Of a stretch of 40,896 nt of DNA, positions 5,044 through 32,157 are shown piece after piece. Under the pieces are notes generated by a model. It ran no database searches. It was given only the letters and a program-made list of their open reading frames with translations, and had not been told where the DNA came from. The translations under genes and the position numbers were made by a program. Source of the stretch: a bacterium (GTDB lineage: Bacteria; Margulisbacteria; WOR-1; O2-12-FULL-45-9); NCBI GenBank assembly GCA_043816125.1, contig JBDRIF010000068.1, positions 1 to 40,896 of the forward strand, given 5' to 3'. Position 1 is the first letter of the stretch; the number at the start of each line of letters is the position of its first letter.

Positions 5044-7045
5044 GATTAAGGTTGGAGACTTGGCGATCAAACTAAATATCGATCCCAAAGAACTCCTCAA
5101 AATATTAAAAGATTTTGATGTTCCTGCCAAAACTGCAGCTTCATCAATTGATGAAGAGACCGCCCGGATCGTCACCGAATCTGTCCACCCCTCAAAAGAG
5201 AAACCAGTTGAAAAAGTAGAAACAAAGAAAATAGAACCAGAAAAACCTGTAGCAGCTCCGATCCCAGCGGCAGAGGTGGCTCTGCCCGATGAAAAAAACC
5301 GCGAAGCCATAACCATCGAAACCGAATCGATCACCGTCAAAGACTTATCAGAGCTGATCAAAGAAAAACCGTCTATCGTGATCATGGAATTAATGAAGAA
5401 AGGGGCGATGGCCAACATCAATCAGATGATCAGCACCGATATGGCCAAAGGGGTCGCCGCCAATTTGGGGCATCACCTGATTCTTAAACTTCCTAAGAAG
5501 ACAGATGAAGCAAAATCTCATAACATCGATATTGAACAGCTGGTTACCCGTCCCCCGGTAGTCACCATCATGGGCCACGTTGACCACGGCAAAACCAAAC
5601 TATTGGACGCCATCAGATCTTCCCGCATAGCCGAAGGTGAAGCCGGTGGAATCACTCAACATATCGGCGCCTACCAGGTTGAAATCGAAGGAAAAAAAGT
5701 CACTTTCCTGGATACCCCGGGGCACGAAGCCTTTACCGCCTTACGAGCCAGGGGGGCTAGTGTGACCGATATCGCAATTTTAGTTGTCGCGGCTGATGAC
5801 GGAGTCAAACCACAAACTGTCGAAGCGATCGATCATGCTAAAGCAGCCGGAGTCCCGATCATTGTCGCAATCAACAAAGTCGACAAACCTGATTCCGATA
5901 TCGATAAAGTTAAAACTCAACTCTCCAAACTCGATCTGTTGGCCGAAGACTGGGGTGGAAAAACTGTCATGGTCCCTGTCTCGGCGCTAAAAAAAGAAGG
6001 AATAAATGACCTGCTCGAAATGATCCTCTTGGTAGCGGAAGTCCTGGAATTAAAAGCCGACCCGGCCGCTAACCCGGTCGCCATTGTTATCGAATCACGA
6101 CTGGATAAGGGGAAGGGACCGGTCGCCGATATCTTAGTTAAGAACGGGACCCTGAAGATTGGCGATATTTTTCATAGCGGCTCGACCTACGGCAAGGTCA
6201 GGGCCCTTTTTGATGAACATGGAAAAAGACTGACCGAAGCAGGACCTTCTCGACCGGCCGAGCTATTAGGGATTGCCGATATCACCACTTCTGGTGATTT
6301 GCTGACAGTAGTCAAATCAGAGTCTGTAGCCAGGCAATTAGCTGAAGATAATCAACAAAAAATTAAAACAACCGCTCAACGCAACATCCTCTCATTAGAA
6401 GATTTCTCCAAACATATCAAAGAAGGAGAACAAAAGAATTTAAATCTGGTCCTCAAAACCGATGTTCAAGGTTCCCTTGACGCGATCAATCAATCAATCC
6501 AGGGATTGACCGTTGGGAACATCACCTTAAACATCATTCATAAATCGGTCGGTGCTATCGCCGAATCTGATATTATGCTCGCCATAGCCTCTAAGGCGAT
6601 CGTAGTCGGCTTTAATGTTCCGCTCGAGGGGAACACCTCCGACATCGCCTCTCAAGAAGGGGTTGAGGTCAGGCAATACGACATTATTTACAAGCTGATC
6701 GACGATATCAAACTGGCGATGGAAGGGTTGCTCGAGCCCGAATATGAAGAGGTGGTCCTTGGTCATGCAGAAGTTCGCAACACCTTTAAGTTCTCCAAGG
6801 TCGGAGTCATTGCCGGTTGTTTTGTCACCGACGGCAAAATGCAGCGCGGGGCCAAGATCAGGATCTTTCGTGACGAAGAAAAGATCTTCGAAGGAAAACT
6901 GGAATCGCTCAAACGGTTTAAAGAAGACGTTAAATCGGTCGAGCAGAGTTTTGAATGTGGCATCGCCCTGCAAGGCTACATCAATTTTAAAGCAGACGAT
7001 CAGATCGAGTGTTTTGAGATCAGAGAAAAAGCAAGGAAAAGATGA
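5024..7045 (+). CDS. infB: translation initiation factor IF-2
   Basis: 673 aa with the GTPase motifs ([17 protein letters not shown]) and an IF2_N domain at the N-terminus. SD AAGGAG lies upstream. It overlaps the nusA 3' end by 20 nt. Confidence 0.97.
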
Positions 7046-7407
7046 GCCGACCAGAACGAATAGCCGAACAGATAAAAAAAGTGGTCAGCGCGATCATCAG
7101 AGAAGATGTTAATGACCCCCGCATCGGTTTTGTCAGCATTACCAAAGTTGAACTCACCTCAGACTTAGAAAACGCCAAGATTTTTATTAGCATATTAGGT
7201 GATGAAAACCAAAAAGTTGAATCGATGAAAGGGCTGCAGTCGGCCACCAGTTTTGTGCGGGGTAAATTAGGGGATGAAATTGAATTTCGCTCGGTACCGG
7301 AGATCCGCTTTGTTAGAGACGATTCGCTGGAAAAAGGGAGTCAGGTCCTAAACATCATGTCCAAATTTAATAGGGACAATAATGAAAGAAACAGCCAACG
7401 CGATTAA
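7042..7407 (+). CDS. rbfA: ribosome-binding factor A
   Basis: 121 aa with the typical RbfA N-terminus (RIAEQIKKVVSAIIREDVNDPRIGFVSIT). An ATGA overlap couples it to infB. Confidence 0.9.
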   Translation: MSRPERIAEQIKKVVSAIIREDVNDPRIGFVSITKVELTSDLENAKIFISILGDENQKVESMKGLQSATSFVRGKLGDEIEFRSVPEIRFVRDDSLEKGSQVLNIMSKFNRDNNERNSQRD

Positions 7408-8359
7408 GCAGGCGATTAAAGACTCCAAGAATGTCTTAGTCGCCTCCCATATTGATCCTGACGGTGACTCGCTCGGTTCGATGCTCGCCATGGGGCAGCT
7501 TTTAACGCAGTTTGGCTTGAAAGTTGATTACTACTCGGAAGATGGAGTCCCAAAAAACTACCGCTTCTTACCCGGATCCGATAAAGTCCGTCGCACACCG
7601 ACCCCCAACCGGATCTATGACCAGTTATTTGCCATGGACGCGTCCGACATTTCCCGTTTGGGAGATAAAGCCATTTTTGCCAATTTCTGCAAGAACGTAA
7701 TTAACATCGACCATCATCCGGATAACACTAAGTACGGCGATATTAACTACGTAGCGTTGACCTCTTCGACCGCCGAACTGGTTTATAAATTATCAAAACA
7801 GCTCGGGCTTAAGATTAACCGTGGGATAGCCGAAAACCTTTATGTCGCTCTGATCACTGATACAGGTAATTTTCGTTATGAGAACACCTCACCGGCCACT
7901 TTTGAGATGGCCAGCGATCTATTAAAGACCGGAATAAATACGCATTCCATCACCACCAGGATTTATGACAATAAAAATTTGGCCAACATTAAGATCCAGG
8001 CCGAGGCCCTGACCAACCTAGAATCTGCGGAAGACGGTAAGGTTGCCTGGGCAATGGTTAATCAAGAGATGATGGAAAAGTATCAGGCCAAAAGTGAAGA
8101 CCTGATCGGGTTGGTCGATCAGCTCCGCTCGATCGAAACGACCGAAGTTGCCATCCTTTTTCGTGAAGAAGAGGGACATGTAAAAATCAACTTTCGCTCA
8201 AAAGAAAAAATCAATGTCTCCCAGATCGCCAAACATTTTGGCGGGGGCGGGCACATTAGGGCGGCGGGGGCGGTCGTTAGAGGGAGAATGGATATGGTTA
8301 AAAACGAAGTTGTGGCCGAAGTGATTAAACATCTTAAGGCCTCAAAGTATCTGGCTTAA
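7382..8359 (+). CDS. DHH/DHHA1 family phosphoesterase (NrnA-like oligoribonuclease/pAp phosphatase)
   Basis: 325 aa with the DHH motifs in order (HIDPDGDSLGS, DHH, GGGGH near the C-terminus). A position after rbfA is common for nrnA-like genes. Confidence 0.8.
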   Translation: MKETANAIKQAIKDSKNVLVASHIDPDGDSLGSMLAMGQLLTQFGLKVDYYSEDGVPKNYRFLPGSDKVRRTPTPNRIYDQLFAMDASDISRLGDKAIFANFCKNVINIDHHPDNTKYGDINYVALTSSTAELVYKLSKQLGLKINRGIAENLYVALITDTGNFRYENTSPATFEMASDLLKTGINTHSITTRIYDNKNLANIKIQAEALTNLESAEDGKVAWAMVNQEMMEKYQAKSEDLIGLVDQLRSIETTEVAILFREEEGHVKINFRSKEKINVSQIAKHFGGGGHIRAAGAVVRGRMDMVKNEVVAEVIKHLKASKYLA

Positions 8360-9267
8360 AAAGAGCTTGCAGCTTCTTCGGTAAGCAGGACTGTCAACAT
8401 CCCCCCATTGGCAATATATTCCTGAACAAAAGATAAAGGACATTCCGCACTAACTCTCTCGGTTAAAGCTCTTTTTGTAATGCCTGCCTTCTCTTTTTGA
8501 GTAGCCATTAAGAGAACATGACGCGGAGGACTTAAGAGCCCCGGGACTCCAAAGATTGTTCCCGGGCCAACAGTCACTGCATAACCAGGGATTTCATCCA
8601 TATTTGCACCCATAAGCCTGGCATTTCTCTCTCTGGTTTGTTCAACTACCGATTGGAGGCTAACAGTCTCTACTCTTGCCGCATCCGTTGACTGATGGTC
8701 ACGAGGCTCATAGAAACCGACATGACCATTCACCCCATATGGCAAAACGACCATATCTATCCCTCCCCAAGCCTCAATCCGCCGCTCAAAATGTCCGGTC
8801 CCAACATCAGCAATTGCCGGAAAATAGGGGGCCCAATCTGGAACCTTAAATAAGCCTGTCTCTTCCATCTGTTTCTGCAGGCTCAAGGGATGATCACTAG
8901 GGAGCAACATCGGGTCACTGTTTGGTTCACTAACCAAATACTCATCCATATTAAAGCTTCTGCCACTAAATCTTTTTGCTCTACAAACCGCGGAAAAGGC
9001 TCTAATAGATGTTGCGGCAGTTGTTGATGAAGGGAAGATATAACTTGGAATACGCCCGGCAGATATGGAGTCTGTCATAACGGAGGCCATTAAGTACGTA
9101 GCCAGTTTTGCCAAATCAAGATCATTGGCAATTATATTTATTGCGATCAGAGTATTGAGGGAAGTACGAACCATTTCGGATGCAACCCGAATCTTTGTTT
9201 CGCGCGGCAGTAACATATGCCGACCTGTCCCTTTTTGAACTTGTACCGAATAATAATGACTCGCCAT
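8356..9267 (-). CDS. divergent glucosamine-6-phosphate deaminase / 6-phosphogluconolactonase family (NagB/Pgl-like) protein
   Basis: 303 aa with NagB-like blocks FNMDEY, YGVNGHVGFYEP (compare GNDGHIAFNEP) and IPGYAVTVGPGT (compare KYALTVGVGT). The N-terminal Gly-rich phosphate loop is degenerate. Confidence 0.6.
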   Translation of the reverse strand: MASHYYSVQVQKGTGRHMLLPRETKIRVASEMVRTSLNTLIAINIIANDLDLAKLATYLMASVMTDSISAGRIPSYIFPSSTTAATSIRAFSAVCRAKRFSGRSFNMDEYLVSEPNSDPMLLPSDHPLSLQKQMEETGLFKVPDWAPYFPAIADVGTGHFERRIEAWGGIDMVVLPYGVNGHVGFYEPRDHQSTDAARVETVSLQSVVEQTRERNARLMGANMDEIPGYAVTVGPGTIFGVPGLLSPPRHVLLMATQKEKAGITKRALTERVSAECPLSFVQEYIANGGMLTVLLTEEAASSF

Positions 9268-9312
9268 AATAATTATTTATCTGTTGATTTTTCAGAAGAT
9301 TTCACTCTTTTT

Positions 9313-12646: not shown

Positions 12647-14404
12647 TTAAGAAATATGCAACAAGTTTTTGAGCATGCGAGCTGTTGAATGGACTAATCC
12701 ATCAGTATTCAACGATTGACCTGCATTAACACCCAACATTCGCTTACGAATATCAACACCTAATGCTTTACCTAACTCAACACCCCATTGATCGAAACTA
12801 TTCAGCCCCCAAATAAAGCCTTTAACAGCCGTTCGATGTTCTGTCAAAGCTAAGAGAGCGCCAGTAACGAAGGGGGTCAATTCTTCAAAGATCATGGTGC
12901 TTGACGGTCTATTCCCGGTAAATATTTTGTGGGAAACAAGAGCCTCAGCTTTTTCCTGCGTTATTTTCCCTTTATCAACCTCTATTTGTAAGTCAGCTCT
13001 AACCTCAGCCTCGTTTTTTCCAAAAGCCAAAGCATCGGCCTGAGCAAGAACGTTAGCATTCAACTCATTTTGATGAGAAACAGCCTCTGCTGTATTTTTT
13101 CCTAACTCCGAACCAGGCTGTGCTTTTCTAAAAGCAATGAAATCAGCTGGAACTGTAACACCTTGGTGAAGCAACTGATAAAAAGAATGTTGACCATTTG
13201 TTCCGGCCTCACCAAAAACCGCTTCCCCAGTAAAGAAGCTTACAACACGTCCGAATAAATCGACCCGTTTGCCATTACTCTCCATCTCACCTTGTTGAGT
13301 ATATCCTGGAAATTTTGCCAATCGTTGAGAGTAAGGGAGTAGAGCACGAATTCTGAACCCAAGGAAATTTATATTTAAAACATCTACTAACGCAGAAAGA
13401 ACCGGAATATTTTTGCTAAATTCCGCGGTTCTAAAATGCTGATCCATCCATTCAGCACCACGTAGAATTTGCTCAAACTTTTCATACCCTAGAAAAAGAG
13501 AAAGAGGAACAGCTCCAACAGCAGAGGTCGCGCTATAACGTCCACCAACCCAATCCCAAAACCCAAACATGTTCGCTGTATCAATCCCAAAAGCTTCAAC
13601 CTTGTCCGCAGCAGTGGAAACAGCGATAAAATGGCTTCTGATTACTTCATCAGGTTTTTTTGTAGGGCCACTATGACTTAACTTACTAATCATCCAGGCT
13701 TTTGCAGTTTGCGCATTCATCATCGTCTCTGCAGTAGTGAAAGTTTTGGAAACAATAATAAACATAGTCTCTTCAGCATCAAGATCCTTTGTTTGCTTAG
13801 CAAAATCTGATCCATCTACGTTCGCTACAAATCTTAAGGTCATCCCCTTATCAGCATAAGCTTCACAAGCTTCAGCCAAGTAGGCAGGGCCTAAATATGA
13901 TCCCCCAATACCGATAGCAACAACATTTTTTATTTTCTTACCGCTAACACCAGTCCGAGTCCCATCATGAATTTCTTTTGAAAACTGCTTAACATCGGCC
14001 AAAACCTTCTTAACTCCAGGCATGACATCTTTTCCGTCAACCATAACAGGTAGGTCAGATGATTGTCTTAAGGCCGTGTGCAAAACAGCACGGTTTTCAG
14101 TAACGTTGATTTTTTCACCGTTAAACATAGCCTCGATCTTGCCTTTTAGACCGGCCGCATCAGCCAGTTTTAACAACAAACGCATAGTTGTGGAAGTCAC
14201 TAATTGGCGAGAGTAATCATATTCAACCGTAGTTCCTTCTGGAGACATTAATTCAACAGAGAGGTTATCGGATCTTTTCTGATCATTTTTAAAAGCCTCT
14301 CTTAACTTTAATGGGTTTATCCGTCTTGCCTGCGTATGCAGCCAAAGATTTCTCCAGGCACCTGTTTTATTTATCGGTCTGGGCATTGCTACTGATCCTT
14401 CCAT
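12647..14404 (-). CDS. pgi: glucose-6-phosphate isomerase
   Basis: Long-form PGI blocks are present (IGIGGSYLGP, VSKTFTTAETM, GGRYS, QQGEMESNGK). I chose the start at 14404 because AAGGAGG lies 5 nt upstream. The longer ORF to 14446 has no SD. Confidence 0.93.
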   Translation of the reverse strand: MEGSVAMPRPINKTGAWRNLWLHTQARRINPLKLREAFKNDQKRSDNLSVELMSPEGTTVEYDYSRQLVTSTTMRLLLKLADAAGLKGKIEAMFNGEKINVTENRAVLHTALRQSSDLPVMVDGKDVMPGVKKVLADVKQFSKEIHDGTRTGVSGKKIKNVVAIGIGGSYLGPAYLAEACEAYADKGMTLRFVANVDGSDFAKQTKDLDAEETMFIIVSKTFTTAETMMNAQTAKAWMISKLSHSGPTKKPDEVIRSHFIAVSTAADKVEAFGIDTANMFGFWDWVGGRYSATSAVGAVPLSLFLGYEKFEQILRGAEWMDQHFRTAEFSKNIPVLSALVDVLNINFLGFRIRALLPYSQRLAKFPGYTQQGEMESNGKRVDLFGRVVSFFTGEAVFGEAGTNGQHSFYQLLHQGVTVPADFIAFRKAQPGSELGKNTAEAVSHQNELNANVLAQADALAFGKNEAEVRADLQIEVDKGKITQEKAEALVSHKIFTGNRPSSTMIFEELTPFVTGALLALTEHRTAVKGFIWGLNSFDQWGVELGKALGVDIRKRMLGVNAGQSLNTDGLVHSTARMLKNLLHIS

Positions 14405-14498
14405 TTTTTCCTCCTTGCCCCGAGCATCGTCGAGGGGCTTATTCAACCTTTTTTATTTTACTACATCCATCACTCTCCCACTAGGGGAAGGTGAGGGG

Positions 14499-16148
14499 TT
14501 AACTAGGTAAACCTAATAACGCATCAAGCTCTTCGGACGCTTTAGCGGCAACTCCCAATGGTTGATCATGAGCTTCCTGATAATCCTTAATAATGGGTTC
14601 TGTCCCAGAAGGTCTCTTCAATACCCAAATTCCACCTTTCAAAACAACCTTAATACCATCACCGATAACCATTCGCTCAATATCACGGCCATTAACTTTT
14701 TTTCCATCTAATAGTCTATGGACCTCAGCTGGATCACTGGCCAAGGCTTTTAATCTCTTTTTCTTAGCATCAGTGGCAGGACTATCAACTCGATCATAGT
14801 TGAAGGTTCCATGTTTAGCGACTAATTCGCCATACAAAGTTCCGATATCCTTGCCTGTCGAAGCAATAATTTCCATCATTAGTAGTACAGCCACGATACC
14901 ATCCTTCTCCGTAACCCAAGTACTCCCATCCATTTGAGGCACACTAAAGCCAGCACTCTCTTCACCTGCCAAGACATAACGACCTTCGACTAGTCCTTTA
15001 ACATAATATTTAAAACCGACGTTCACTTCATGAACCGGCCGGCCTAAGGAATTAGCAATAGCATCCAACATATGAGAGGTTCCGATGGTTCTACCAATCC
15101 CCATGCTCTGATCAAATCCACGAGTTGTTGCCAGATGATGAAAAACAACACTGAGAATATGGTTAGGGTTGAGAATTCCAGTTGAATCTTCGCCACCGAA
15201 TCTATCAGCATCATTATCATTGGCTCCGACAAAAGGAACATTATGTTCTTTACGCATCCCATCAACAGCCTTCATAACATATGGAGAAGAAGGATCTCCC
15301 CTATGCACACCATCATGATCTATTGTACGATTTGCTCCTGCAGGATCTGGTTGAGCAAGCAGCTCGACAATGTTTGTCCCGTGTTCTGCATTTATTCTTT
15401 CATAATAGCCATGTGCCGATCCACCAAGAGAAGTGGCCGCGAATCTCCCTTCACGAACAGCTTCAATATTAACAACTAAAGGTAACTCAGCGACATATTG
15501 CCCCTGCAAGTCCTCTGTAACAACTAGTCCCGCGGCAACAGCCTCTTCCATTGACACTTGAGCAATCTCACTAGCATTTGGCAGTAATTGATTACTTCTT
15601 TCATCAATTTGTGCAGTTCTTGTGTTTGGACCACCATCCTGTCCATTCGATTTGATCCCGCCATTATCTGGAGCATTGTGAGAGGCAGTTACAATAATAC
15701 CTTCAGTTCCACTTTCTGCTTGTTTGTTTCCATTGATGATTCGTCGAGAGACAACTGGAGTAGGGACAGCTCGGCCATCAATATCAACAATCGAAGTGAC
15801 CCCATTAGCGGCCAAAACACCAATTGTAGTTACTCTTGCAAAATCAGAAAGAGCTCTAACATCATGACCGACAACGACTGAGCCTGCAGGTTTCCCTTTT
15901 AAATGAGAGAGAACATCAGGACCATAAGTCCCTCTTTCATTTCTAATATCAACTAAGGCTTGGGTCATAGAAGCAACCTGAGACCTGTTAAAGCCGGCAC
16001 CGGCTTTACCTCTGTGTCCAGAAGTCCCGTTCTTAACTTTATCTGTTTTAGCTCGCTTTTTCCCATAAAGATCGCGCATTTGTTTTCTGGTGATTAGCTC
16101 ATGCGACGCCAACTTCTGTCCTGCTCTTGGATGTATCGTTCTATTCAT
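14499..16148 (-). CDS. pgm: phosphoglucomutase (alpha-D-phosphohexomutase family)
   Basis: 549 aa with the active-site loop TASHNAPDNGGIK, the metal loop NDNDADRFG and an E. coli Pgm-like N-terminus (HPRAGQ). SD AAGGGGGAAAAG lies upstream. Confidence 0.9.
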   Translation of the reverse strand: MNRTIHPRAGQKLASHELITRKQMRDLYGKKRAKTDKVKNGTSGHRGKAGAGFNRSQVASMTQALVDIRNERGTYGPDVLSHLKGKPAGSVVVGHDVRALSDFARVTTIGVLAANGVTSIVDIDGRAVPTPVVSRRIINGNKQAESGTEGIIVTASHNAPDNGGIKSNGQDGGPNTRTAQIDERSNQLLPNASEIAQVSMEEAVAAGLVVTEDLQGQYVAELPLVVNIEAVREGRFAATSLGGSAHGYYERINAEHGTNIVELLAQPDPAGANRTIDHDGVHRGDPSSPYVMKAVDGMRKEHNVPFVGANDNDADRFGGEDSTGILNPNHILSVVFHHLATTRGFDQSMGIGRTIGTSHMLDAIANSLGRPVHEVNVGFKYYVKGLVEGRYVLAGEESAGFSVPQMDGSTWVTEKDGIVAVLLMMEIIASTGKDIGTLYGELVAKHGTFNYDRVDSPATDAKKKRLKALASDPAEVHRLLDGKKVNGRDIERMVIGDGIKVVLKGGIWVLKRPSGTEPIIKDYQEAHDQPLGVAAKASEELDALLGLPS

Positions 16149-16163
16149 TTTCTTTTCCCCCTT

Positions 16164-16195
16164 AAAATAAAAAAGCCCTAATTTCTTAGGGCTTT
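16164..16195 (-). terminator. intrinsic terminator ending the four-gene operon, about 15 nt upstream of the pgm SD
   Basis: On the minus strand, AAGCCCTAA-GAAA-TTAGGGCTT (a perfect 9-bp stem) is followed by TTTTTTATTTT. Confidence 0.65.
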
Positions 16196-16246
16196 AAAAG
16201 TCTCTATCTTTTTATCAGACACTTTTCTGAAAAATTTCAGTTATTT

Positions 16247-16852
16247 TCAATCTTTTGGATAATTTCCCGGATGCTGCCACTGTGATCGAACATCCCTTGT
16301 TTTATCAACAGAATCCAAATAAAGTGCGTGCTCTAGAGAAACATCAGCGCCAACCTCGGTCAGATCAAGCTCAACAACTTCGGCATCTCTAACTTCTGCT
16401 AAATATCGATCAACAGTAGAAATATTGTGTAACGCGGCAACAAAAACTAAAATCTTGTCCGTCACATCTTTCTGTACATCATATCTTTCAACCACAATAA
16501 ATCTGGCCTGAGTAGTCCCGGCAGAATGTTCAGCAAGACCCAGGACCGCTTCTTCCAAAGCCTCAATTAATTTCATCGGCTCCATTACTACCTCTCCAGG
16601 GGAGAGGTCAGATAAATCAAACTTGCTCAGCACCTGATCGAGCAAACGTTGACCCAATACATCACAGCGGATCTCCTGCAAAGGAAAAACGCTTAATAAC
16701 GGAATTAGGAATTGTTTAAACCCAGCCTTCAATGGGAACGGTTTCAAAGTGTTACTCATTCTCTGAAAAGGATGGCCCATCATTTTAGTGGTTGAAGCAC
16801 GTCCTTCGCCAACTTTTGGGGACCAGATAATTACTCTTGATACTGCGCTCAT
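16247..16852 (-). CDS. hypothetical acidic protein (orphan), last gene of the YvcK-like operon
   Basis: 201-aa ORF with SD GGAGGA 8 nt upstream of the ATG. It is co-directional with the upstream genes, and I recognised no family. Confidence 0.55.
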   Translation of the reverse strand: MSAVSRVIIWSPKVGEGRASTTKMMGHPFQRMSNTLKPFPLKAGFKQFLIPLLSVFPLQEIRCDVLGQRLLDQVLSKFDLSDLSPGEVVMEPMKLIEALEEAVLGLAEHSAGTTQARFIVVERYDVQKDVTDKILVFVAALHNISTVDRYLAEVRDAEVVELDLTEVGADVSLEHALYLDSVDKTRDVRSQWQHPGNYPKD

Positions 16853-16913
16853 AATTTTTTATCCTCCAAACTAGTTTCGCTAGATAAATCAGAAAATTTC
16901 ACTATAAATACTT

Positions 16914-18092
16914 TTAAGCAACCAAGCGCATCAGCTCATCTGCCAAAGTCTTAGCTTGATAATGGACAGCCACAACTTTAGCCAGGTCGTCTTTGTCATA
17001 AACTGGTTTAAGCAAAGAAGAAGTCTTTTCCAAATCCAAACCTGCTAGGTCTTGAGAAATGGGATGTAAACCAGGGGCTAATATTCCCGCCCATTCACCG
17101 ACAAAAACCCTTTGAAGATAATCGCCATCAACCGTGCTGGGGGAGGAGTCAAAGCGACGCAGAGTATCAATGACTTTTCCGGCCATCATCCCGGTTGTCA
17201 TACCAACAGTTTCCCTGTCTTCAGTCGGATTAGCAGTAAAAACCTTTACAGCCTTGGTATTGCTCCTAACGGCCTCTGCCATCCCTCTTATATATAATGT
17301 AGAAAGAATACTGGTATAGAAGCTCCCCATAGAAAAAACGATCATATCAGCGTTAGCTATTGCAGCTATCGCGTCCTTATGAAGCCGGGGAATAATAGGT
17401 GCGTCCAGGCAAGGATATGCCCAATCCAGATAAAATAGTTCCTTTATGGGTGAGGGCGATGTTTTCTCATGTGAAATAACATGCTGTTCAACAAGATTGG
17501 TCCCATCCTCCAGTTTAGCCGCCAACGTGAGACTTTCTGTCGTCGCCGGAATTACATCCCCCCGCACATTCGCCAGCTGATGATAAAGGAAAATTGCTGT
17601 TTCTAAACTCTGTCCATAGTCAAAATATGCGCCGGCTAAAAATAGGTTTCCAATACTGGCTTTGGCCAGGTCAAACAAGACTCGTTGTTCATGCTCAACA
17701 ATACGGCGCTCAGTCTCACATACATTGAGTTCTTTAAGCAAAATCCTGGTAAAAGCTTCATTATCAATAGCTTGAACTAGTCGATGATCCCCTTTTAATA
17801 TTGATTGCCATTCTCTTTCTAATTCCGCAGGCTCTTTATCAACAGGCAATCGATATTTAAGTAAAGCAGTTGACGCCTCATAAGCAGGAGACTCCCGATC
17901 AGCCAAGTCGATCAAACGACTGCGTAGATCTCCGATGGCCGGCAGTTTCTCAAACAACAATCTTAACTGTCTGGTGCTACCACCACTGTCAGAAACATTG
18001 ATAATATGAGCTGTATGACATTTGCGTCTGGCCATCTCTCTGGCAATTCCCCGCGCGCCTGAGCCACCTGTAATAAAAACTATATTAGCCAT
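16914..18092 (-). CDS. divergent YvcK/GlmR-CofD family (UPF0052) protein
   Basis: 392 aa with the family blocks in order: VFITGGSGARG, NVSDSGGSTRQLR, IGDLRSRL, SIGNLFLAG, NVRGDVIPAT, ADMIVFSMGSFYTSILS. SD GGGAGG lies upstream. There is an 8-nt overlap with the upstream ORF. Confidence 0.75.
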   Translation of the reverse strand: MANIVFITGGSGARGIAREMARRKCHTAHIINVSDSGGSTRQLRLLFEKLPAIGDLRSRLIDLADRESPAYEASTALLKYRLPVDKEPAELEREWQSILKGDHRLVQAIDNEAFTRILLKELNVCETERRIVEHEQRVLFDLAKASIGNLFLAGAYFDYGQSLETAIFLYHQLANVRGDVIPATTESLTLAAKLEDGTNLVEQHVISHEKTSPSPIKELFYLDWAYPCLDAPIIPRLHKDAIAAIANADMIVFSMGSFYTSILSTLYIRGMAEAVRSNTKAVKVFTANPTEDRETVGMTTGMMAGKVIDTLRRFDSSPSTVDGDYLQRVFVGEWAGILAPGLHPISQDLAGLDLEKTSSLLKPVYDKDDLAKVVAVHYQAKTLADELMRLVA

Positions 18093-18999
18093 TTTGCGCC
18101 TCCCGTTCCATTTGAACAGCCACCGCTATGACATGTAATTCCTTAACCCCTTTAAAAATGCGATCAGCAAGAATTGCCTGATGGACTCGCGGCGCTCGTT
18201 TTGCCACCACCGCCATAGACTGTTGTCCGTGCCTGATAAAATATTCAACAACCTGGCGCCGACTGGAATCTCGTAAAAATACCTGTTCGATCGGCTGCTG
18301 AGCCCGTTTAGCACGAGCTAATACAGCTTCGGCTCTTGCTCTGGCAATACAGCCATAAACTAATAATATGTCATGCCTCTCCTGGGACGAAAATGAGGTC
18401 AGGGGGGTAAAGGGCCTGTTTAGCAGTTGAGCCAATACACATTCACTAACACTAACACGCGGTTTTTGCGGCTCTTTCTTTTGCTTAGGTTCAGCAATTT
18501 TTATCCGACCTTCCTCCTCCTGATAACGAGCAATTGCTGTCTCAATATTGTCCAAGGCTACCCATTCGGCCAGCAACCGAATAACAACATTCCTTACCAA
18601 CTCTGGTCGTTCTGACACACCAACTATTGCCATAACCTCTTTCAATCCCATAACCTTATAATCACTGCCAAAGAGTAAGCTATATACGTTTCGACATTCC
18701 TCATCTCCACGATCAGCCAGGGCTTTTAATTCATCCTTTTTAAAGGGAGGATTAGTCTCAAAAAAGTGCACCACTTTAAGCACTCCCAATATCCTTGCTT
18801 CAACTTTCGCCACCGTCATCATCGGACTATTGACAGGGTGATTGGAAGTTCTTAAAAAGGAAAATCTTGATCGGAGATCCTGAAGTATTCGATCACAAAG
18901 CAAACTGACATCATTATTTTTGCGTAGATCGGACCGTTCAAGTCTTTTATCCCTGAGTTCTTGAATTTTGGGACCACGGATAGGAAAGGATACTCTCAT
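18085..18999 (-). CDS. hypothetical protein with two copies of a ~50-aa helical repeat shared with the upstream 682-aa protein
   Basis: 304-aa ORF that is translationally overlapped with the YvcK-like gene. Repeats lie at aa 69-127 and 248-295. No clear SD, so the start is uncertain. Confidence 0.55.
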   Translation of the reverse strand: MRVSFPIRGPKIQELRDKRLERSDLRKNNDVSLLCDRILQDLRSRFSFLRTSNHPVNSPMMTVAKVEARILGVLKVVHFFETNPPFKKDELKALADRGDEECRNVYSLLFGSDYKVMGLKEVMAIVGVSERPELVRNVVIRLLAEWVALDNIETAIARYQEEEGRIKIAEPKQKKEPQKPRVSVSECVLAQLLNRPFTPLTSFSSQERHDILLVYGCIARARAEAVLARAKRAQQPIEQVFLRDSSRRQVVEYFIRHGQQSMAVVAKRAPRVHQAILADRIFKGVKELHVIAVAVQMEREAQNG

Positions 19000-19041
19000 G
19001 GTAGTTATCTATCGGCTTGGTTTGGCTAAAATTTCACTTTC

Positions 19042-21090
19042 TTAGCTGCGACACGGGCTTACTTTCGCCTTCATTTCCGCAGCCAACGCTCTTACCTGTC
19101 CAATACCGGTAAAGAGATGACGATGGAATATCATGTTATATATTTTGCGGTGATTCCTTTTCAGGTCCAGGACCGAAATGTTTGGGTTGTCAAAAATAAA
19201 GAATTTAAGCACTTCTTTTTGCTGCGGTGTAAAACCAGCCCAAACCCCCTCAGTAATTTTTTCCTCTGCCGCTTTTATTATTTTGCGCTTTTCCACTTTT
19301 GCCGCTACTCTGGCCACTCTCATATTCCCAAACACTTCCGGATCATTAATCAGGGCTAAGATCTCTGGATGTTTCTGTTCAAGGTCATAAAAAGTCAATC
19401 GAGGATTATCCAAGAGATGCTTGATTACTCTTGATCTTTTCGCTGCAAGTTCATCTCTTGGCTCAGCAACTGGCTCTGCATCAGCCAAAACGTCTTCTTC
19501 AATTGGAGAGGGCTCAATAATATTAACATCCTCTAACTGCCCGGCACGTCGCCTTAAGTCCGCAATAACTTTGGCAGAAACCAATTTATCGGCAGCAGCT
19601 AAAGCATGCCCCTCAACAATACCATTGACCACAATATGCCCCCTTGGCCCATAAACCAGATTTTTAATCTTTCCGGCTGCGAAAACTTCATTTTTCCCGG
19701 CAGCCTCGTTTTCCTCAAAAAATCTAATTACAGCCATGACTTGCTTCGCCCGATGAATAACCCGCTCAATGCTTCTCCGATCTTCCGGGAGCACAATATC
19801 ATTCTCTCTGGGTTTGTAGGGATATCGGGCCTGGAGTTCTTCGATCAACATCAGGCAGTATTGTTTCGCATTGTCAGTCACCGGCGGGAGATCAGCCTCA
19901 GCCAAACAGAGCAAAAGTTCTGTTTCCAGTTTAGCTATTATTTTGCGGCATAGATTTAAATCTGTCATTCCAGCTACAGCTTTAGCTTGTTTGAGACCTG
20001 AAAATACTTTGTTTTCAAAAAGGAACTCCCCAATCACCGAAGATGATGCTTTGAGTTCGGCGGCTTTAATTCCCGGATGCTCTCTGACATGTCTGATGAC
20101 TCGCACCATTTGGCTAAGCCGACTGGCAAATCTACGCAGCCCTTGCAGATTACTAGGCAGTTGACGGCTATCTTTTGTCGAAGCTAAAAGAGGGTATCTA
20201 TCAAACAGGTTACTGGCAACCATCATGCAATAAATTTCAACCTCCGCCGGGTTCAGCTCATGAGCAATAGTAAAAGAGTTGGCTGCTCCGGCATACGTTC
20301 CCTCGCAAAATAAATCAAAGCCGGAATCAAAGAGAGGGGAACTAATCTGGGAAGTATCAATTTCTGACTGCCGCAAAAGTGAGCCGATTTGCCTGGCTTC
20401 GTCCATCTCTCCCTGTTCAATAAGGGAGATAAGGAGCCTGGGCATAATCCGGACATGATTGTCTACATCACTTTTTGCAGAGATCAGGCCTAGACGCAAC
20501 CGCACTTCTGAAACAGCATCCAGCGAATCGTAGAAATCATTGAGTTCCTTCCCATGCGGAGTAAGCTTCATCGCTGATAAGGCACAATTAACAGCCATTG
20601 ATATATTGCCCTCAAGCATATATTTTTCTGCAGCTGATAATAATCCGGCTTTTCTTGTTTTTCGCATGGCCGGAGACTCTTCTTTTGCCGGCCTACTGGG
20701 AGCTGCTGCAGAAATTGGTGGGGGCGGAGACGAATGAACAGGGACCACAACCTCAGGACTAATTTTTTGAGACAACTCAATAGCACCAGGATCATGGGGC
20801 TTAACTTCTAACGCCCGTTTAACGGCCAACCGGGCGCCCTGTATATCTTTATGCGTCCGAAGTTGACGACGTGCCCGTCCCATAAACAGTTCAAATACTC
20901 TATCTACTTCCGCATTTACTAACCGATTATTAGGATCCAACCTCTGGGCTAATGATAAAGCAGCCAAAGCCTCATTCGTCCTTCTGTTTGCCAAATGAGC
21001 TTTTGATTGAGCAAGCAAATCAAAAACAGATGTTTGTCTGTTGGGTGTACTAACAGGCTTTGGGCCGAGAGGAATACGAGTTTTCATCAT
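19042..21090 (-). CDS. hypothetical TPR-like protein with four C-terminal copies of the same ~50-aa helical repeat
   Basis: 682-aa ORF. TPR-like helices span aa 25-105 and about 150-300, with a Pro/Ala-rich linker at aa 111-140. Repeats lie at aa 328-377, 450-500, 552-598 and 624-672. Confidence 0.6.
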   Translation of the reverse strand: MMKTRIPLGPKPVSTPNRQTSVFDLLAQSKAHLANRRTNEALAALSLAQRLDPNNRLVNAEVDRVFELFMGRARRQLRTHKDIQGARLAVKRALEVKPHDPGAIELSQKISPEVVVPVHSSPPPPISAAAPSRPAKEESPAMRKTRKAGLLSAAEKYMLEGNISMAVNCALSAMKLTPHGKELNDFYDSLDAVSEVRLRLGLISAKSDVDNHVRIMPRLLISLIEQGEMDEARQIGSLLRQSEIDTSQISSPLFDSGFDLFCEGTYAGAANSFTIAHELNPAEVEIYCMMVASNLFDRYPLLASTKDSRQLPSNLQGLRRFASRLSQMVRVIRHVREHPGIKAAELKASSSVIGEFLFENKVFSGLKQAKAVAGMTDLNLCRKIIAKLETELLLCLAEADLPPVTDNAKQYCLMLIEELQARYPYKPRENDIVLPEDRRSIERVIHRAKQVMAVIRFFEENEAAGKNEVFAAGKIKNLVYGPRGHIVVNGIVEGHALAAADKLVSAKVIADLRRRAGQLEDVNIIEPSPIEEDVLADAEPVAEPRDELAAKRSRVIKHLLDNPRLTFYDLEQKHPEILALINDPEVFGNMRVARVAAKVEKRKIIKAAEEKITEGVWAGFTPQQKEVLKFFIFDNPNISVLDLKRNHRKIYNMIFHRHLFTGIGQVRALAAEMKAKVSPCRS

Positions 21091-21154
21091 AACGCTTCTT
21101 CGCTTACAATATCTGCAAATTTCACTTTTTCTTTAGATATGATAGTATTTACTT

Positions 21155-22129
21155 ATGAACAAACAAATCAAATCGATTGCAGTCTTAACAACAGGTGGCG
21201 ATGCGCCGGGGATGAATACAGCAATTAGAGCAGTGGTTAGGACCGGAGTTTATCACGGTCTAAAAGTCTGGGGAGTCAAAAGAGGCTGGTCGGGCTTGAT
21301 TAACGGATTGATCGAAGAGATGAGCCGCCACTCGGTCAGCGATATCGTTAATCGCGGCGGGACAATGCTCCATACCAAACGCTGTCCCGAATTTAGGGAA
21401 AAGGTTAATCGGGCCAAGGCCTACAAAAATATGACCGATAGAGGGATAGACGCCTGTGTTGTTATCGGCGGCGACGGCTCGATGCGGGCTTCCCACCAAT
21501 TCGCACAAGACTTTAAAGTACCGATCAATGTTATTCCAGCTACTATAGATAATGATATTGCCTATACCGATTTTACGATCGGTTTTGACACCGCAGTTAA
21601 CACTGCTTTGGAAGCGATCGATAAGATCAGAGACACTGCACATTCTCACGAACGGCTCTTTGTGATCGAAGTAATGGGGAGACACAACGGTTTTATCGCC
21701 CTCGATGTCGGTTTGTCCGCCGGAGCCGAAGCTATCCTGATCCCGGAGATTAAATATGATATCAACAAACTTATTAAAAACATTAAAGCCGGACAACAGC
21801 TCGGAAAAAACAGCTTTATTATAGTAGTAGCCGAAGGAGCAGGGGATGCTATCGAGATTGGGAAGAAACTCCAGGCTAAGATAAATCTTGAAGTTAGAGT
21901 AACCAAACTCGGTTATATGCAAAGAGGGGGGACACCGACATCCTTTAGCCGAGAATTAGCCTGTAAACTTGGCGCTTCTGCAGTCGAATCACTGATCAAC
22001 GGAAAATCAGGCTATCTTATCGGGGCGATATCGGACAGCGTGCAATTAACCCCATTAACCAAGGTCTTCAAAGCTAAAAAGAAGATCGATATGGAACAGC
22101 TCCGGATCGCCGAGATGTTGGCTTCATAA
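21155..22129 (+). CDS. pfkA: ATP-dependent 6-phosphofructokinase
   Basis: 324 aa with TTGGDAPGMNTAIR, GGDGS (the Gly characteristic of ATP-dependent enzymes), ATIDND and MGRHNG. Confidence 0.93.
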   Translation: MNKQIKSIAVLTTGGDAPGMNTAIRAVVRTGVYHGLKVWGVKRGWSGLINGLIEEMSRHSVSDIVNRGGTMLHTKRCPEFREKVNRAKAYKNMTDRGIDACVVIGGDGSMRASHQFAQDFKVPINVIPATIDNDIAYTDFTIGFDTAVNTALEAIDKIRDTAHSHERLFVIEVMGRHNGFIALDVGLSAGAEAILIPEIKYDINKLIKNIKAGQQLGKNSFIIVVAEGAGDAIEIGKKLQAKINLEVRVTKLGYMQRGGTPTSFSRELACKLGASAVESLINGKSGYLIGAISDSVQLTPLTKVFKAKKKIDMEQLRIAEMLAS

Positions 22130-30586: not shown

Positions 30587-30952
30587 TTAGATTTGTTTTT
30601 GAGGCGAGTTTAAAGGCAAATTCTCCGGCATTTCAGTGAAAGCAGCTGCTGCATATCTAACAGGGTTTTCCGGACATACATGATGAGCAACAGCAAAAGC
30701 CCAGCCAGGATTATAACCCTGAAATTGTTTGGAATCAGTTCTGTCCACGCAATACATGATCGCGTTAGCCAGAGCATTTGACCGCTCGTCAACAGCCATT
30801 GACATAATATCCTCAGCCTTGACCATGGTGGCAGCGGTTGTATTCAAAACATTCTTTTCTGCGTCACTTAATTTTACTGCCGGCGGCATTCGCCACATAA
30901 ACGATCCCGGCTGCCGAGCAGTACGACGGATAGCACCCAAATAATTTGCCAT
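30587..30952 (-). CDS. hypothetical protein, short paralog of the 290-aa ORF at 31285-32157
   Basis: 121 aa. The N-terminal ~70 aa and the YAAAA block align with the 290-aa protein, and the 3'-end DNA is also similar. Confidence 0.5.
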   Translation of the reverse strand: MANYLGAIRRTARQPGSFMWRMPPAVKLSDAEKNVLNTTAATMVKAEDIMSMAVDERSNALANAIMYCVDRTDSKQFQGYNPGWAFAVAHHVCPENPVRYAAAAFTEMPENLPLNSPQKQI

Positions 30953-31016
30953 ATCTTTTCTTCTTAATAATTATCAATTAATTTCAGGAGTTTGCGGCAG
31001 AAGAACTAATTTCATA

Positions 31017-31284: not shown

Positions 31285-32157
31285 TTATTGAGGCGAGTCT
31301 GCGGCAGAAGAACTAATGGCTTCCGGCAAAAACTGCCATTCTAAAGCACTAGTATAATTTCTCTGATATAAAGGACTGCCTGAAAAACCGATTCGTCTGT
31401 CAAGGAATCGATAATAGCGCTCATCCAGCCTGCCGATTAATACAGATAAACTTTCTCCCCCTAATTGAAGAACAATATCTTCAATCGCCGCTGCTGCATA
31501 ATGTGGCCACAACGCCAACTCTTCCGCTAAGTCAGATTCCGGAGCCGGTCGCCTGGCTTGCAGCATTTTCTTAAGTGCAATAAAGTTTCCATCATCTTGA
31601 AAATGGGTCACTCTAATCCGCCTCAATGTCGACGGTTCACCGAAAAAGCTCGACCAAAAACCGACAATACCGATTCCTTCAAATTCTTCAGAACTAAAAT
31701 ATGATCTTCGTATTTTATCTGAATTAATAGTTTGCCAGTAGGGGATTCCAAGCTTACTAAATGGCGAAAAGATTTCTCTCCCATCCAATTGTATTGCAGG
31801 TAAAGGGAAAAGTTTGCGCCAATCAGGCAGGTTTTGTTCCAGTAAAGCCAATCCACCATCTTTTGCCACCTGTACACCCAGATCCATCCCGGCATTCGAC
31901 CAGACTTTTACAACAAATCTGAAAGTGTGATTCCCGACAGAAAAGACATGCCCATGAAGGAGAGAGGCTAAGTCCAGGATTGCCTCGTTGTAAGTATCTC
32001 GAACCGCGAGAGCTTCGTCAGCCGATATTCGACCAACGGATGCACGCTTTATCAATTCCAGTTCCGCTACGGTTAGCTTTTCGATTGGTGGTTGGCACCA
32101 AGCGAATGACCGGGATAATCTGGCCGCCTGTCGTAAGCCCCCCAAAGAGTTCTTCAT
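31285..32157 (-). CDS. hypothetical protein, long member of the local paralog family
   Basis: 290-aa ORF. Its N-terminus MKNSLGGLRQAARLSRSFAWCQPP parallels MANYLGAIRRTARQPGSFMWRMPP of the 121-aa ORF. Confidence 0.55.
   Translation of the reverse strand: MKNSLGGLRQAARLSRSFAWCQPPIEKLTVAELELIKRASVGRISADEALAVRDTYNEAILDLASLLHGHVFSVGNHTFRFVVKVWSNAGMDLGVQVAKDGGLALLEQNLPDWRKLFPLPAIQLDGREIFSPFSKLGIPYWQTINSDKIRRSYFSSEEFEGIGIVGFWSSFFGEPSTLRRIRVTHFQDDGNFIALKKMLQARRPAPESDLAEELALWPHYAAAAIEDIVLQLGGESLSVLIGRLDERYYRFLDRRIGFSGSPLYQRNYTSALEWQFLPEAISSSAADSPQ

Follow-up and report, generated by a model that had tools for sequence, protein, structure and literature searches.

In the 40,896-nt contig JBDRIF010000068.1 of a WOR-1 bacterium (Margulisbacteria), which at its full length is the window of this analysis, a gene for a protein of the CofD superfamily lies in a string of four minus-strand open reading frames (ORFs) amid genes for hexose-phosphate enzymes. 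We name the four products after their lengths in amino acids (aa): p682 (19042-21090), p304 (18085-18999), the CofD-like p392 (16914-18092) and p201 (16247-16852). A first-pass annotation of the sequence had read the string as one operon, in which a GlmR-like protein is accompanied by an alternative set of three partners. Here we ask if p682, p304 and p201 are such conserved partners or if they have joined an older gene cluster. We find that the CofD-like gene recurs beside sugar-phosphate genes in its clade and that the three other genes were found in this genome only. The best explanation, to which we give an even chance, is an old core with recent insertions: a YvcK-like protein that is co-regulated with enzymes of hexose-phosphate and amino-sugar metabolism, and orphan genes that have been recruited to the locus.

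The CofD-like protein and its gene neighbourhood

The membership of p392 in the UPF0052/CofD family, which the first-pass annotation had proposed, is confirmed by the profile search: p392 matches the Pfam family CofD (PF01933) over residues 4-312 with 148.4 bits (cutoff 30; E 3e-43). The best NCBIfam model is TIGR04357, 'GAK system CofD-like protein' (236.4 bits, under the cutoff of 340), and the models for YvcK (TIGR01826; 117.4 bits, cutoff 196) and for CofD of F420 biosynthesis (TIGR01819; 16 bits, cutoff 257) also score below their cutoffs. The protein passes none of these curated subfamily thresholds. Its closest homologues, with 41-53% identity, all come from metagenome-assembled genomes and metagenomes of Margulisiibacteriota/WOR-1, and the next tier, with 31-38% identity, is the proteobacterial GAK-type family.

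The AlphaFold2 model of p392, which is based on 118 homologues, has a predicted local distance difference test score (pLDDT) of 93 and a predicted template modelling score of 0.92. In a Foldseek search the best match is 2O2Z with a template modelling (TM) score of 0.85. The structures 2O2Z, 2PPV and 2HZB are matched with E ~1e-22 and target-normalised TM scores of 0.82-0.85, and YvcK structures overall, including 2Q7X, with TM scores of 0.75-0.85. The TM scores to CofD/FbiA structures are about 0.53-0.64, at 11-13% identity. We conclude that p392 is a CofD-superfamily protein with a YvcK fold from a Margulisiibacteriota/WOR-1 clade, and that it is nearer to the GAK-type proteins than to YvcK (236 vs 117 bits).

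The CofD/UPF0052 blocks of p392 align to the YvcK structures in residues 2-79 and 142-301. The insertion of about 60 aa that had been noted after the GDLR block is real: residues 80-141, which follow the GDxRSR block, are unaligned to the YvcK structures, and the alignments break between residues 79 and 142. This insertion is common to the entire GAK-type family, with R81 invariant and L91 and G101 conserved, and it is predicted to be helical in the p392 model (H88-100, H104-107 and H112-136). Together with the substitutions at Gly and Asp positions, it is a trait of the whole subfamily and not peculiar to p392. Twenty residues are invariant among the 118 sequences: G9, G10, D35, S39, R44, G54, D55, R57, R59, R81, F140, G148, N149, G178, Q203, S257, S261, K283, D292 and E294. 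Many of these are polar or charged, as is typically seen where a ligand or active site is conserved and contains many phosphate-binding arginines. The Margulisbacterial clade has the loop TGG[T/S]G, as in YvcK, whereas the GAK-type proteins have SGG[S/T]A. Because the YvcK-like loop has been kept, the clade stands between YvcK and the GAK-type proteins.

We compared the gene order in 98 loci (numbered with the prefix L), all of which were fetched around a CofD gene, using gene tables and tblastn mapping. A recurrent arrangement in Margulisiibacteriota/WOR-1 is tpiA-fba-pfp-pfkA(divergent)-CofD-like-pgm-pgi-...-ligA, which we found in L001, L007, L009 and L022, and in part in L011, L013, L017 and L027. 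In L005 and L018, pgm lies immediately upstream of the CofD-like gene. Glycolytic neighbours are found in none of the 60 lower-identity loci from other phyla. In the window, the conserved neighbours downstream are pgm (phosphoglucomutase family; 14499-16148, minus strand; Pfam PGM_PMM I-IV) and pgi (phosphoglucose isomerase; 12647-14446, minus strand; Pfam PGI, E 4e-187). On the other side, pfkA (21155-22129, plus strand; Pfam) is divergent from p682 across 64 nt, and a second PFK-family gene, identified by Pfam, is followed by fba and tpiA. The proposed link to the node of glucose 6-phosphate (Glc-6-P) and fructose 6-phosphate (Fru-6-P) is therefore borne out by the order pfkA<>CofD-pgm(-pgi) in most loci of the clade, as well as by the shared motif described below. 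The stated lack of rapZ and whiA also stands: no RapZ or WhiA domain was found among the window ORFs, and neither gene is in the gene tables of L001-L005, L007 and L008.

The cluster itself has changed in places. In L001, a PGI fragment of 109 aa (6423-6752) lies between the CofD-like gene and pgm; it is 46% identical to residues 74-194 of the window PGI, and a full pgi is found 3 kb downstream of the fragment. Furthermore, the pgm of L001 (624 aa) belongs to a different PGM subtype from that of the window. Both observations point to rearrangements within the cluster and to the replacement of genes.

According to one alternative, p392 is a plain GAK-system CofD-like protein, whose ATP-grasp, amphi-Trp and HprK-related/PhoU-linked kinase partners are encoded elsewhere; its role would be related to phosphate or peptide modification and unconnected to sugar metabolism, and the glycolytic context would be incidental. 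That TIGR04357 is the best NCBIfam model and that p392 shares the insertion and the 20 invariant residues with the GAK-type proteins speaks for such a role. So do the loci of GAK-type proteins, since L098 has the canonical neighbourhood with a RimK-type ATP-grasp protein, an amphi-Trp protein and a PhoU-kinase fusion (PhoU-APH), and L097 has pst-phoU beside the CofD-like gene. However, the score lies below the cutoff of the model, the clade has the loop of YvcK, and neither the window nor the gene tables of L001-L005, L007 and L008 contain an ATP-grasp, amphi-Trp or kinase gene. In addition, the adjacency to pgm and pfkA and the shared promoter-like motif recur across the clade. We consider this alternative to be quite improbable for p392. 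The two loci with PhoU come from Desulfococcus (L097, pstSCAB-phoU; region 5947-8194) and Zhongshania (L098, fusion; region 5113-8194), and the PhoU adjacency in these proteobacterial loci hints at a phosphate-related role for the wider GAK-type family.

A bipartite motif upstream of the cluster genes

The motif came to light in a repeat scan that connected the intergenic sequences before p201 and p682. The element consists of an A-rich stretch, AGTGAAATTT, 14 nt and then [C/A/T]GA[A/T]A. The exact 10-mer AGTGAAATTT is present three times in the window, where 0.21 copies are expected, and 0 of 100 shuffles reach this count. Each copy is on the minus strand and in a different intergenic gap of the string, 26-41 nt before the starts of p682, p304 and p201. 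When the window was scanned with a position weight matrix (PWM) of 40 nt, no more than five sites exceeded the shuffle maximum (27.5-33.4 vs 16.0), again all on the minus strand. Three of them contain the 10-mer copies and precede p682 (AGTGAAATTT-N14-CGAAG; 21093-21132; score 32.8), p304(-p392) (19005-19044; score 33.4) and p201 (16870-16909; score 27.5). The two others, which were not among the PWM training sites, precede pgm (ACTGAAATTT-N14-TGATA; 16208-16247; score 28.1) and, by about 9 nt, the ATG of a nagB-like gene (AGTGAAATCT-N14-AGATAA; 9273-9312; score 28.3). The pgm site lies between the p201 stop and a hairpin, and by spacer similarity it is orthologous to the promoter motif of pgm in L007 (4816-4855). 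No PWM site in the window was found before groEL, nusA-infB, secA, pfkA, fba or the pur genes.

The motif is specific to the lineage, as the PWM detects 14 sites in the 221 kb of Margulisbacterial loci, compared to zero in the 757 kb that come from other phyla. At every site it is in sense orientation, with a start codon 4-70 nt downstream, and the N14 spacer is constant at 14 of 15 sites (corresponding to 16 nt between TGAAAT and CGA). The motif is found upstream of pgm in L001, L007, L009, L011 and L013, upstream of pgi in L007, upstream of orphan ORFs that precede the CofD-like gene in L022 and L027, and upstream of an ORF without Pfam match after pgi in L007. Directly upstream of the CofD-like gene, it is present in slightly degenerate form in L001, L007, L009, L013, L008, L017 and L026, where the sites of L017 and L026 were read from the printed sequence. 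In two different genomes, L004 (7712-7936, minus strand) and L018 (~15330-15560, minus strand), a perfect copy also precedes the gene of a conserved 74/75-aa protein with paired CxxC (MKKEERCPSCNKLLMK.GEIKCPRCKE...). This protein might belong to the same regulon as a zinc-ribbon regulator or as a candidate anti-sigma-like factor.

The fifth target in the window, the ORF at 8356-9267 (minus strand), has no Pfam match at default thresholds, and Glucosamine_iso reaches 13 bits under a cutoff of 27. When the ORF was compared to the PDB with phmmer, all 12 matches were glucosamine-6-phosphate (GlcN-6-P) deaminases (best 2BKV, E 2.2e-9). The alignments include the NGH[IV]xF.EP signature; the match is poor over about 100 residues at the N-terminus. 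We conclude that the ORF resembles NagB in its signature and in its exclusive matches to these deaminases and differs by its strong divergence, so that it is a very divergent NagB-family protein with a putative deaminase-like activity. Hence, the motif-bearing genes of recognisable function in this genome (pgm, pgi and the nagB-like gene) all belong to the node of glucose 1-phosphate (Glc-1-P), Glc-6-P, Fru-6-P and GlcN-6-P. The remaining targets are the YvcK-like protein and the orphans.

The promoters that are recognised by extracytoplasmic function (ECF; group 4) sigma factors have the -35 consensus tGAAACnTTTt with a proximal T-tract and a -10 element CGTA, CGTC or CGAC (PMC5758882). Read as TGAAAT-N16-CGAWA, where N16 is TT plus 14 nt, the motif has a similar architecture, and on this basis we infer that it is an ECF-type promoter. 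Alternatively, AGTGAAATTT-N14-CGAWA could be an operator of a transcription factor, a sigma-70 variant promoter of AT-rich intergenic DNA, or a short repeat or insulator that is carried along by gene insertions. The lack of a sigma gene nearby in the window would agree with this, and the A-rich upstream context and the T-tract fit an UP-element-like housekeeping promoter equally well. Furthermore, the motif occurs on both sides of p201, like a duplicated insertion footprint, and the pgm copy of the window precedes a terminator-like hairpin. Several properties of the motif argue against these possibilities, namely the fixed spacer, the restriction to the sense strand close to the starts, the absence before groEL, nusA-infB, secA, pfkA and fba, the close match to the published ECF architecture, and the correlation of the distance to the ATG with the presence or absence of a Shine-Dalgarno (SD) sequence. 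A motif of another type than ECF is thus unlikely in our view. A general scan for sigma-70 promoters did not yield an enrichment of promoter-like matches (15 vs 17.7 expected).

The SD sequences themselves agree with the earlier annotation, with GGGAGG before p392 and GGAGG before p201; none is visible before p304 or p682. In the genes without SD, i.e. p682, p304 and the ORF at 8356-9267, 9-12 nt separate the end of the -10 box from the ATG (9 nt for p682 and 12 nt for p304), whereas the distance is 24 nt in the SD-bearing p201, which leaves room for the GGAGG. With so short a distance, the transcript of p682 would be near-leaderless, and judged by the spacing the same would apply to the p304 and nagB-like transcripts.

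The string of four ORFs was described correctly in its layout: the ORFs are co-directional, with gaps of 42 nt (p682/p304) and 61 nt (p392/p201), and the p304 stop and the p392 start overlap by 8 nt (18085-18092, ATGGCTAA). No minus-strand terminator-like site was found within 16247-21090. These features would fit a single operon, yet there are three promoter-like motifs, before p682, p304 and p201. Because each unit has its own motif copy, three transcription units (p682, p304-cofD-like and p201) are probable, and what had been called a four-gene operon is probably not a single one.

The hairpin that had been described as a terminator at the end of the string is present as well (16164-16195, minus strand). 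It folds into a 10-bp stem with a GAAA loop, followed by a U-tract (-15.6 kcal/mol, z = -2.2), which resembles an intrinsic terminator. It closes the p201 unit and at the same time lies inside the predicted pgm leader, about 15 nt before the pgm start, so that the order is promoter motif (16247-16208), hairpin (16195-16164) and pgm. It is possible that the pgm promoter copy has decayed and that pgm depends on read-through; the hairpin might also be an attenuator or a 5' stabiliser, or it might terminate the p201 transcripts only partially. The pgm leaders of L001, L007 and L011, as far as they were printed, show no such hairpin, and in L007 and L009 no plus-strand terminator-like site lies on the way from the CofD-like gene to pgm.

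Three orphan genes beside the CofD-like gene

The first-pass annotation had regarded p682, p304 and p201 as an alternative partner set, but these proteins have no detectable homologues. For p682, only the self-match was found among 5.8 billion proteins (word-indexed search), and a DNA-level scan of metagenome contigs yielded no relative. An exhaustive HMMER search with p304 over 1.84 billion representatives and a word-indexed search with p201 also returned the self-match only. In the 98 loci, none of the three was detected by tblastn, phmmer or a hidden Markov model (HMM) of the repeat module described below, and none matches Pfam, NCBIfam, PHROGs or PADLOC, apart from a sub-threshold TPR_2 match in p682. 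In no other genome that we examined do the four genes occur in synteny, an outcome that the first-pass annotation had itself named as refuting its reading. Thus, the partner complex as a conserved system is already refuted by the absent synteny.

The relatives also show where the orphan genes have been added. Seven related loci have pfkA next to the CofD-like gene, and in five of them the two genes directly adjoin, ~90-330 nt apart (L001, L007, L009, L011, L013, L017, L022 and L027 were counted as distinct loci for the tally). Between the CofD-like gene and pgm, the spacer is ~125 nt in L007, the locus where the gene calls give both ends. These spacers leave no room for p682 and p304, or for p201. 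In other relatives, unrelated ORFs occupy the slots that flank the CofD-like gene, upstream in L022 and L027 and downstream in L017 and L011. As the slots hold different and mutually unrelated ORFs, lineage-specific genes have a hot spot on either side of the CofD-like gene. The slot ORFs could not be annotated (L022 6916-7909, L027 1531-2247, L017 5680-6915, L011 8077-8916 and L007 8516-9193), and some of them have the motif. The only resemblance between those of L022 and L027 is a short motif at the N-terminus, EMSRMxI...FRGSSSG (z 10.9).

Two of the orphans are related to each other. The p682 protein consists of a weakly TPR-like N-terminal region, a Pro/Ala-rich linker and four helical modules of about 65 aa, which lie in residues ~324-682 (19045-20121, minus strand), as delimited by the module HMM and pairwise alignments. 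The internal duplications are significant (p ~5e-7 and ~4e-6), and with three further copies in p304, the module is found nowhere else in the window. The p304 protein is collinear with residues 412-674 of p682 (z 8.9, Gumbel p ~6e-6; phmmer E 8e-6 among the window ORFs) and is a paralogue of the C-terminal half of p682. This bears out the helical repeat that had been noticed in both proteins. The description of p682 as TPR-like is based on a single TPR_2 match (residues 27-55, E 1.3e-5), which at 25.4 bits stays below the cutoff of 27. Both proteins are basic (isoelectric point, pI, 9.2 for p682 and 9.8 for p304) and have no hydrophobic segments. The AlphaFold2 model of p304, for which the paralogue served as the alignment, is all-helical and unreliable (pLDDT 48). 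By its look the module was suspected to have a helix-turn-helix-like fold; we claim no fold, as neither the seven-unit profile compared to the PDB nor each unit compared to Pfam gave a credible match (best E ~1 and 0.05).

The p201 protein had been called acidic, which applies to residues 61-201 (pI 4.6) and not to the N-terminal 60 residues, which are basic (pI 11.1). A collinear Smith-Waterman alignment links p201 to a 185-aa ORF between pgm and pgi in L001 (8799-9353; z 6, p ~4e-4). This p covers the 55 pairs tested, and phmmer gives E = 2 for the same pair, so that we regard p201 only tentatively as a remote homologue of the L001 ORF. A similarity between p682 and a 412-aa ORF of L017 (z 3.5) was rejected as low-complexity similarity.

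Although a conserved system is refuted, the genes might still form one operon for a GlmR-like checkpoint complex, with p682, p304 and p201 as dedicated partners that replace RapZ and WhiA. The co-directional genes with short gaps, an overlap that is compatible with translational coupling of p304 and p392, and the lack of an internal terminator-like site are in line with such a complex. Moreover, the same motif is found on all units, which are hence probably co-expressed. Yet there is no homologue for any of the three proteins, they are lacking beside the CofD-like gene in the clade genomes with enough flanking sequence, unrelated ORFs are found in the same slots (L022, L027, L017 and L011), and each orphan has its own promoter motif. 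We therefore judge a dedicated partner complex to be improbable. Rather, we consider the orphans as co-regulated recruits and not as conserved partners; an interaction of p304 and p392 in this organism is possible but unsupported.

It could also be that the orphan ORFs are non-functional, that is, spurious ORFs, decaying remnants or the product of an assembly chimera. They have no homologues anywhere in our searches, the p304 model is poor, and p682 and p304 have no SD. In a codon-frequency test trained on the conserved genes of the window, however, all four ORFs have a frame-0 signal, with log-odds of 0.12-0.21 in frame and -0.24 to -0.44 in the other frames. This signal indicates real coding sequences beyond chance, and ORFs of 682, 304 and 201 codons have codon statistics like those of the conserved genes. 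In addition, the helical pattern is preserved by the significant paralogy and module duplication, and the flanking synteny is continuous. The lineage-specific motif, which is placed for leaderless or SD-dependent translation, argues against non-functional ORFs and also against a chimera or a recent foreign import. Non-functional orphans are thus very improbable.

Signs of mobile elements were absent at the locus: it is not flanked by long repeats, either direct or inverted, an integrase or a transposase was not found, and there was no match to an Rfam family in 12-26 kb of the window. The block from pgi to p682 (pgi-pgm-p201-CofD-p304-p682, 12647-21090) has a GC content at third codon positions of 0.30-0.40, compared to 0.45-0.49 in pfkA, pfp, fba and ligA. 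A foreign origin of the block by horizontal transfer was considered and rejected; the lower value was judged insufficient, and the codon log-odds are native. The genome of L001 is a fairly close relative, as ligA, pda, pfkA, fba, tpiA and the AlbA_2 gene are 69-88% identical between L001 and the window, while the two CofD-like proteins are only 45% identical. Conserved members of the block are 45-54% identical to L001, compared to the 69-88% of the flanks.

Proposed role and comparison with known systems

The core that we propose is a clade-restricted YvcK-fold protein that would be a standing member of a glycolytic cluster with the ancestral order pfkA <> cofD-like - pgm - pgi. The lineage-specific motif, which precedes the cofD-like gene, pgm and pgi, and in this genome also a divergent nagB-like gene at a distance of 7 kb, would place these genes under a common control. 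An alternative sigma factor might co-induce them, probably in response to envelope or nutrient stress. ECF sigma factors usually respond to such stress. The enzymes of the set interconvert Glc-1-P, Glc-6-P, Fru-6-P and GlcN-6-P. With a nucleotide-sugar or sugar phosphate as its ligand, the YvcK-like protein would either tune an enzyme of the node, as GlmR does, or act as a phospho- or nucleotidyl-transferase. As an outcome, hexose phosphate could be shifted between glycolysis and the precursors of envelope or storage compounds. That p392 binds a nucleotide-sugar or a sugar phosphate is the most likely function by analogy to GlmR, in view of the invariant site rich in Arg, Asp and Lys. GlmR stimulates GlmS and binds UDP-GlcNAc (PMC6171935, PMC7525490), and it has been described as an accessory uridyltransferase (PMC10128056). 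In this genome only, insertions would then have separated the cofD-like gene from what lay on either side of it: p682 and its paralogue p304 from pfkA, and p201 from the ancestral pgm promoter.

Several observations weigh against this reading. Of the residues D40, D41 and N198, which are proposed to be catalytic for the uridyltransferase activity of Listeria GlmR (PMC10128056), only one is kept in p392: D40 corresponds to the invariant D35, D41 is replaced by S36 (Ser in 117 of 118 family members), and N198 is replaced by T265 (Thr in 11 of 19 proteins of the Margulisbacterial clade and Asn in GAK-type proteins). This mapping was done via the 2HZB and 2PPV alignments and assumes a constant 3-residue offset between the B. 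halodurans and Listeria numbering. The UDP-GlcNAc-binding residues Y265 and R301 of B. subtilis GlmR (PMC7525490) fall in the unalignable C-terminal region, as the alignments of p392 to YvcK end at query residue ~301 (chain ~231). A minority of the clade has no sugar-phosphate neighbours (L002 and L012, where the gene lies beside rmlC, and L008). The assignment of the motif to the ECF type draws on sequence architecture, the -10 element is mostly CGA[A/T] and not CGTA/CGTC as in B. subtilis, and no gene for an ECF sigma factor, an anti-sigma factor or a sigma-70 r2/r4 domain was found in the window. The pgm motif of the window, with two substitutions and a terminator-like hairpin behind it, is unlike a simple promoter, and the content of the regulon was sampled locally around CofD genes. 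Lastly, the overlap of p304 and p392 leaves room for a functional coupling with the CofD-like protein in this organism.

A bolder version of our reading, which is possible though doubtful, is that the locus reveals an undescribed stress regulon. An ECF-type sigma factor would directly switch on pgm, pgi and the nagB-like gene together with a functional counterpart of GlmR that is independent of RapZ and WhiA. The regulon would furthermore be a cradle for lineage-specific genes that evolve fast, such as p682/p304 and p201 here and the orphans of L022, L027, L017 and L007. In view of the translational overlap of p304 and p392, the orphans could physically modulate the YvcK-like protein in this organism.

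To our knowledge, YvcK/GlmR has been studied only in Firmicutes and Actinobacteria, and the rapZ-yvcK-whiA context dominates the thinking about it. Its role as activator of GlmS, sensor of UDP-GlcNAc or accessory uridyltransferase is still debated. In a literature search, we found no papers on the GAK-type family or on YvcK in Margulisbacteria. The protein family and its fold are known and the subfamily is uncharacterised; the conserved context of pgm, pgi and pfkA, the absence of both RapZ/WhiA and GAK partners, and the ECF-like regulon appear to be undescribed. A distant YvcK-fold branch in a candidate phylum is here tied to sugar-phosphate genes by gene order and a shared promoter motif. 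This would be independent comparative evidence that the ancestral job of the fold is hexose-phosphate partitioning, as well as a first functional lead for the orphan family of GAK-type CofD-like proteins. For this uncultivated lineage, the ECF-like motif offers a testable definition of a regulon. The orphans exemplify the recruitment of new genes into an existing regulon, and their annotation as conserved partners is unwarranted.

Elsewhere in the window, a cell-envelope polymer module lies on the same contig as the sugar-phosphate cluster (32224-35852, plus strand). It consists of a DUF5693 protein and a fused polysaccharide pyruvyl-transferase (CsaB-like) / WecG-TagA glycosyltransferase. Two further ORFs have no credible family assignment: a 290-aa ORF (31285-32157, minus strand), which is weakly paralogous to the adjacent ORF at 30590-30970 (E 4.5e-6), and a 315-aa ORF (39385-40332, plus strand) with faint matches to Peptidase_C39_2 and BNR_4.

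Compared to known systems, p392 shares with CofD/FbiA, the 2-phospho-L-lactate transferase of F420 biosynthesis, the PF01933 superfamily and the overall Rossmann-like fold, and differs in that no F420 genes are found nearby. With the GAK-type proteins it has in common the insertion with R81, the residues D35, R44, D55, R57, R59, N149, Q203, S257, S261, K283, D292 and E294, and a similar length (~390-400 aa). In contrast to these, p392 has no N-terminal extension of ~25 aa, has T265 instead of the Asn, and lacks the ATP-grasp, amphi-Trp, kinase or PhoU neighbours that are present in L098 and L097. The similarity to YvcK/GlmR/CuvA consists of the same fold and the blocks GGxG loop, DxGGS, GDxR, SxGN and GSxYTS, and both are genetically linked to the node of Fru-6-P, GlcN-6-P and UDP-sugars. 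However, p392 is only ~21% identical to YvcK/GlmR, with the helical insertion of ~60 aa and a longer C-terminal region, and its gene has pgm, pgi and pfkA as neighbours in place of rapZ(yvcJ) and whiA, and an ECF-like promoter motif at the locus. This motif resembles ECF promoters of the B. subtilis sigmaW/M/X/V type in the -35 element TGAAA[T/C], the T-tract, the ~16-nt spacer, a -10 element starting with CG (CGAA, CGAT or CGAC here; CGTA, CGTC or CGAC in B. subtilis), and a distribution that is specialised and not housekeeping. It differs from them in a -35 element that ends with T and not C, and in targets that include central sugar-phosphate enzymes.

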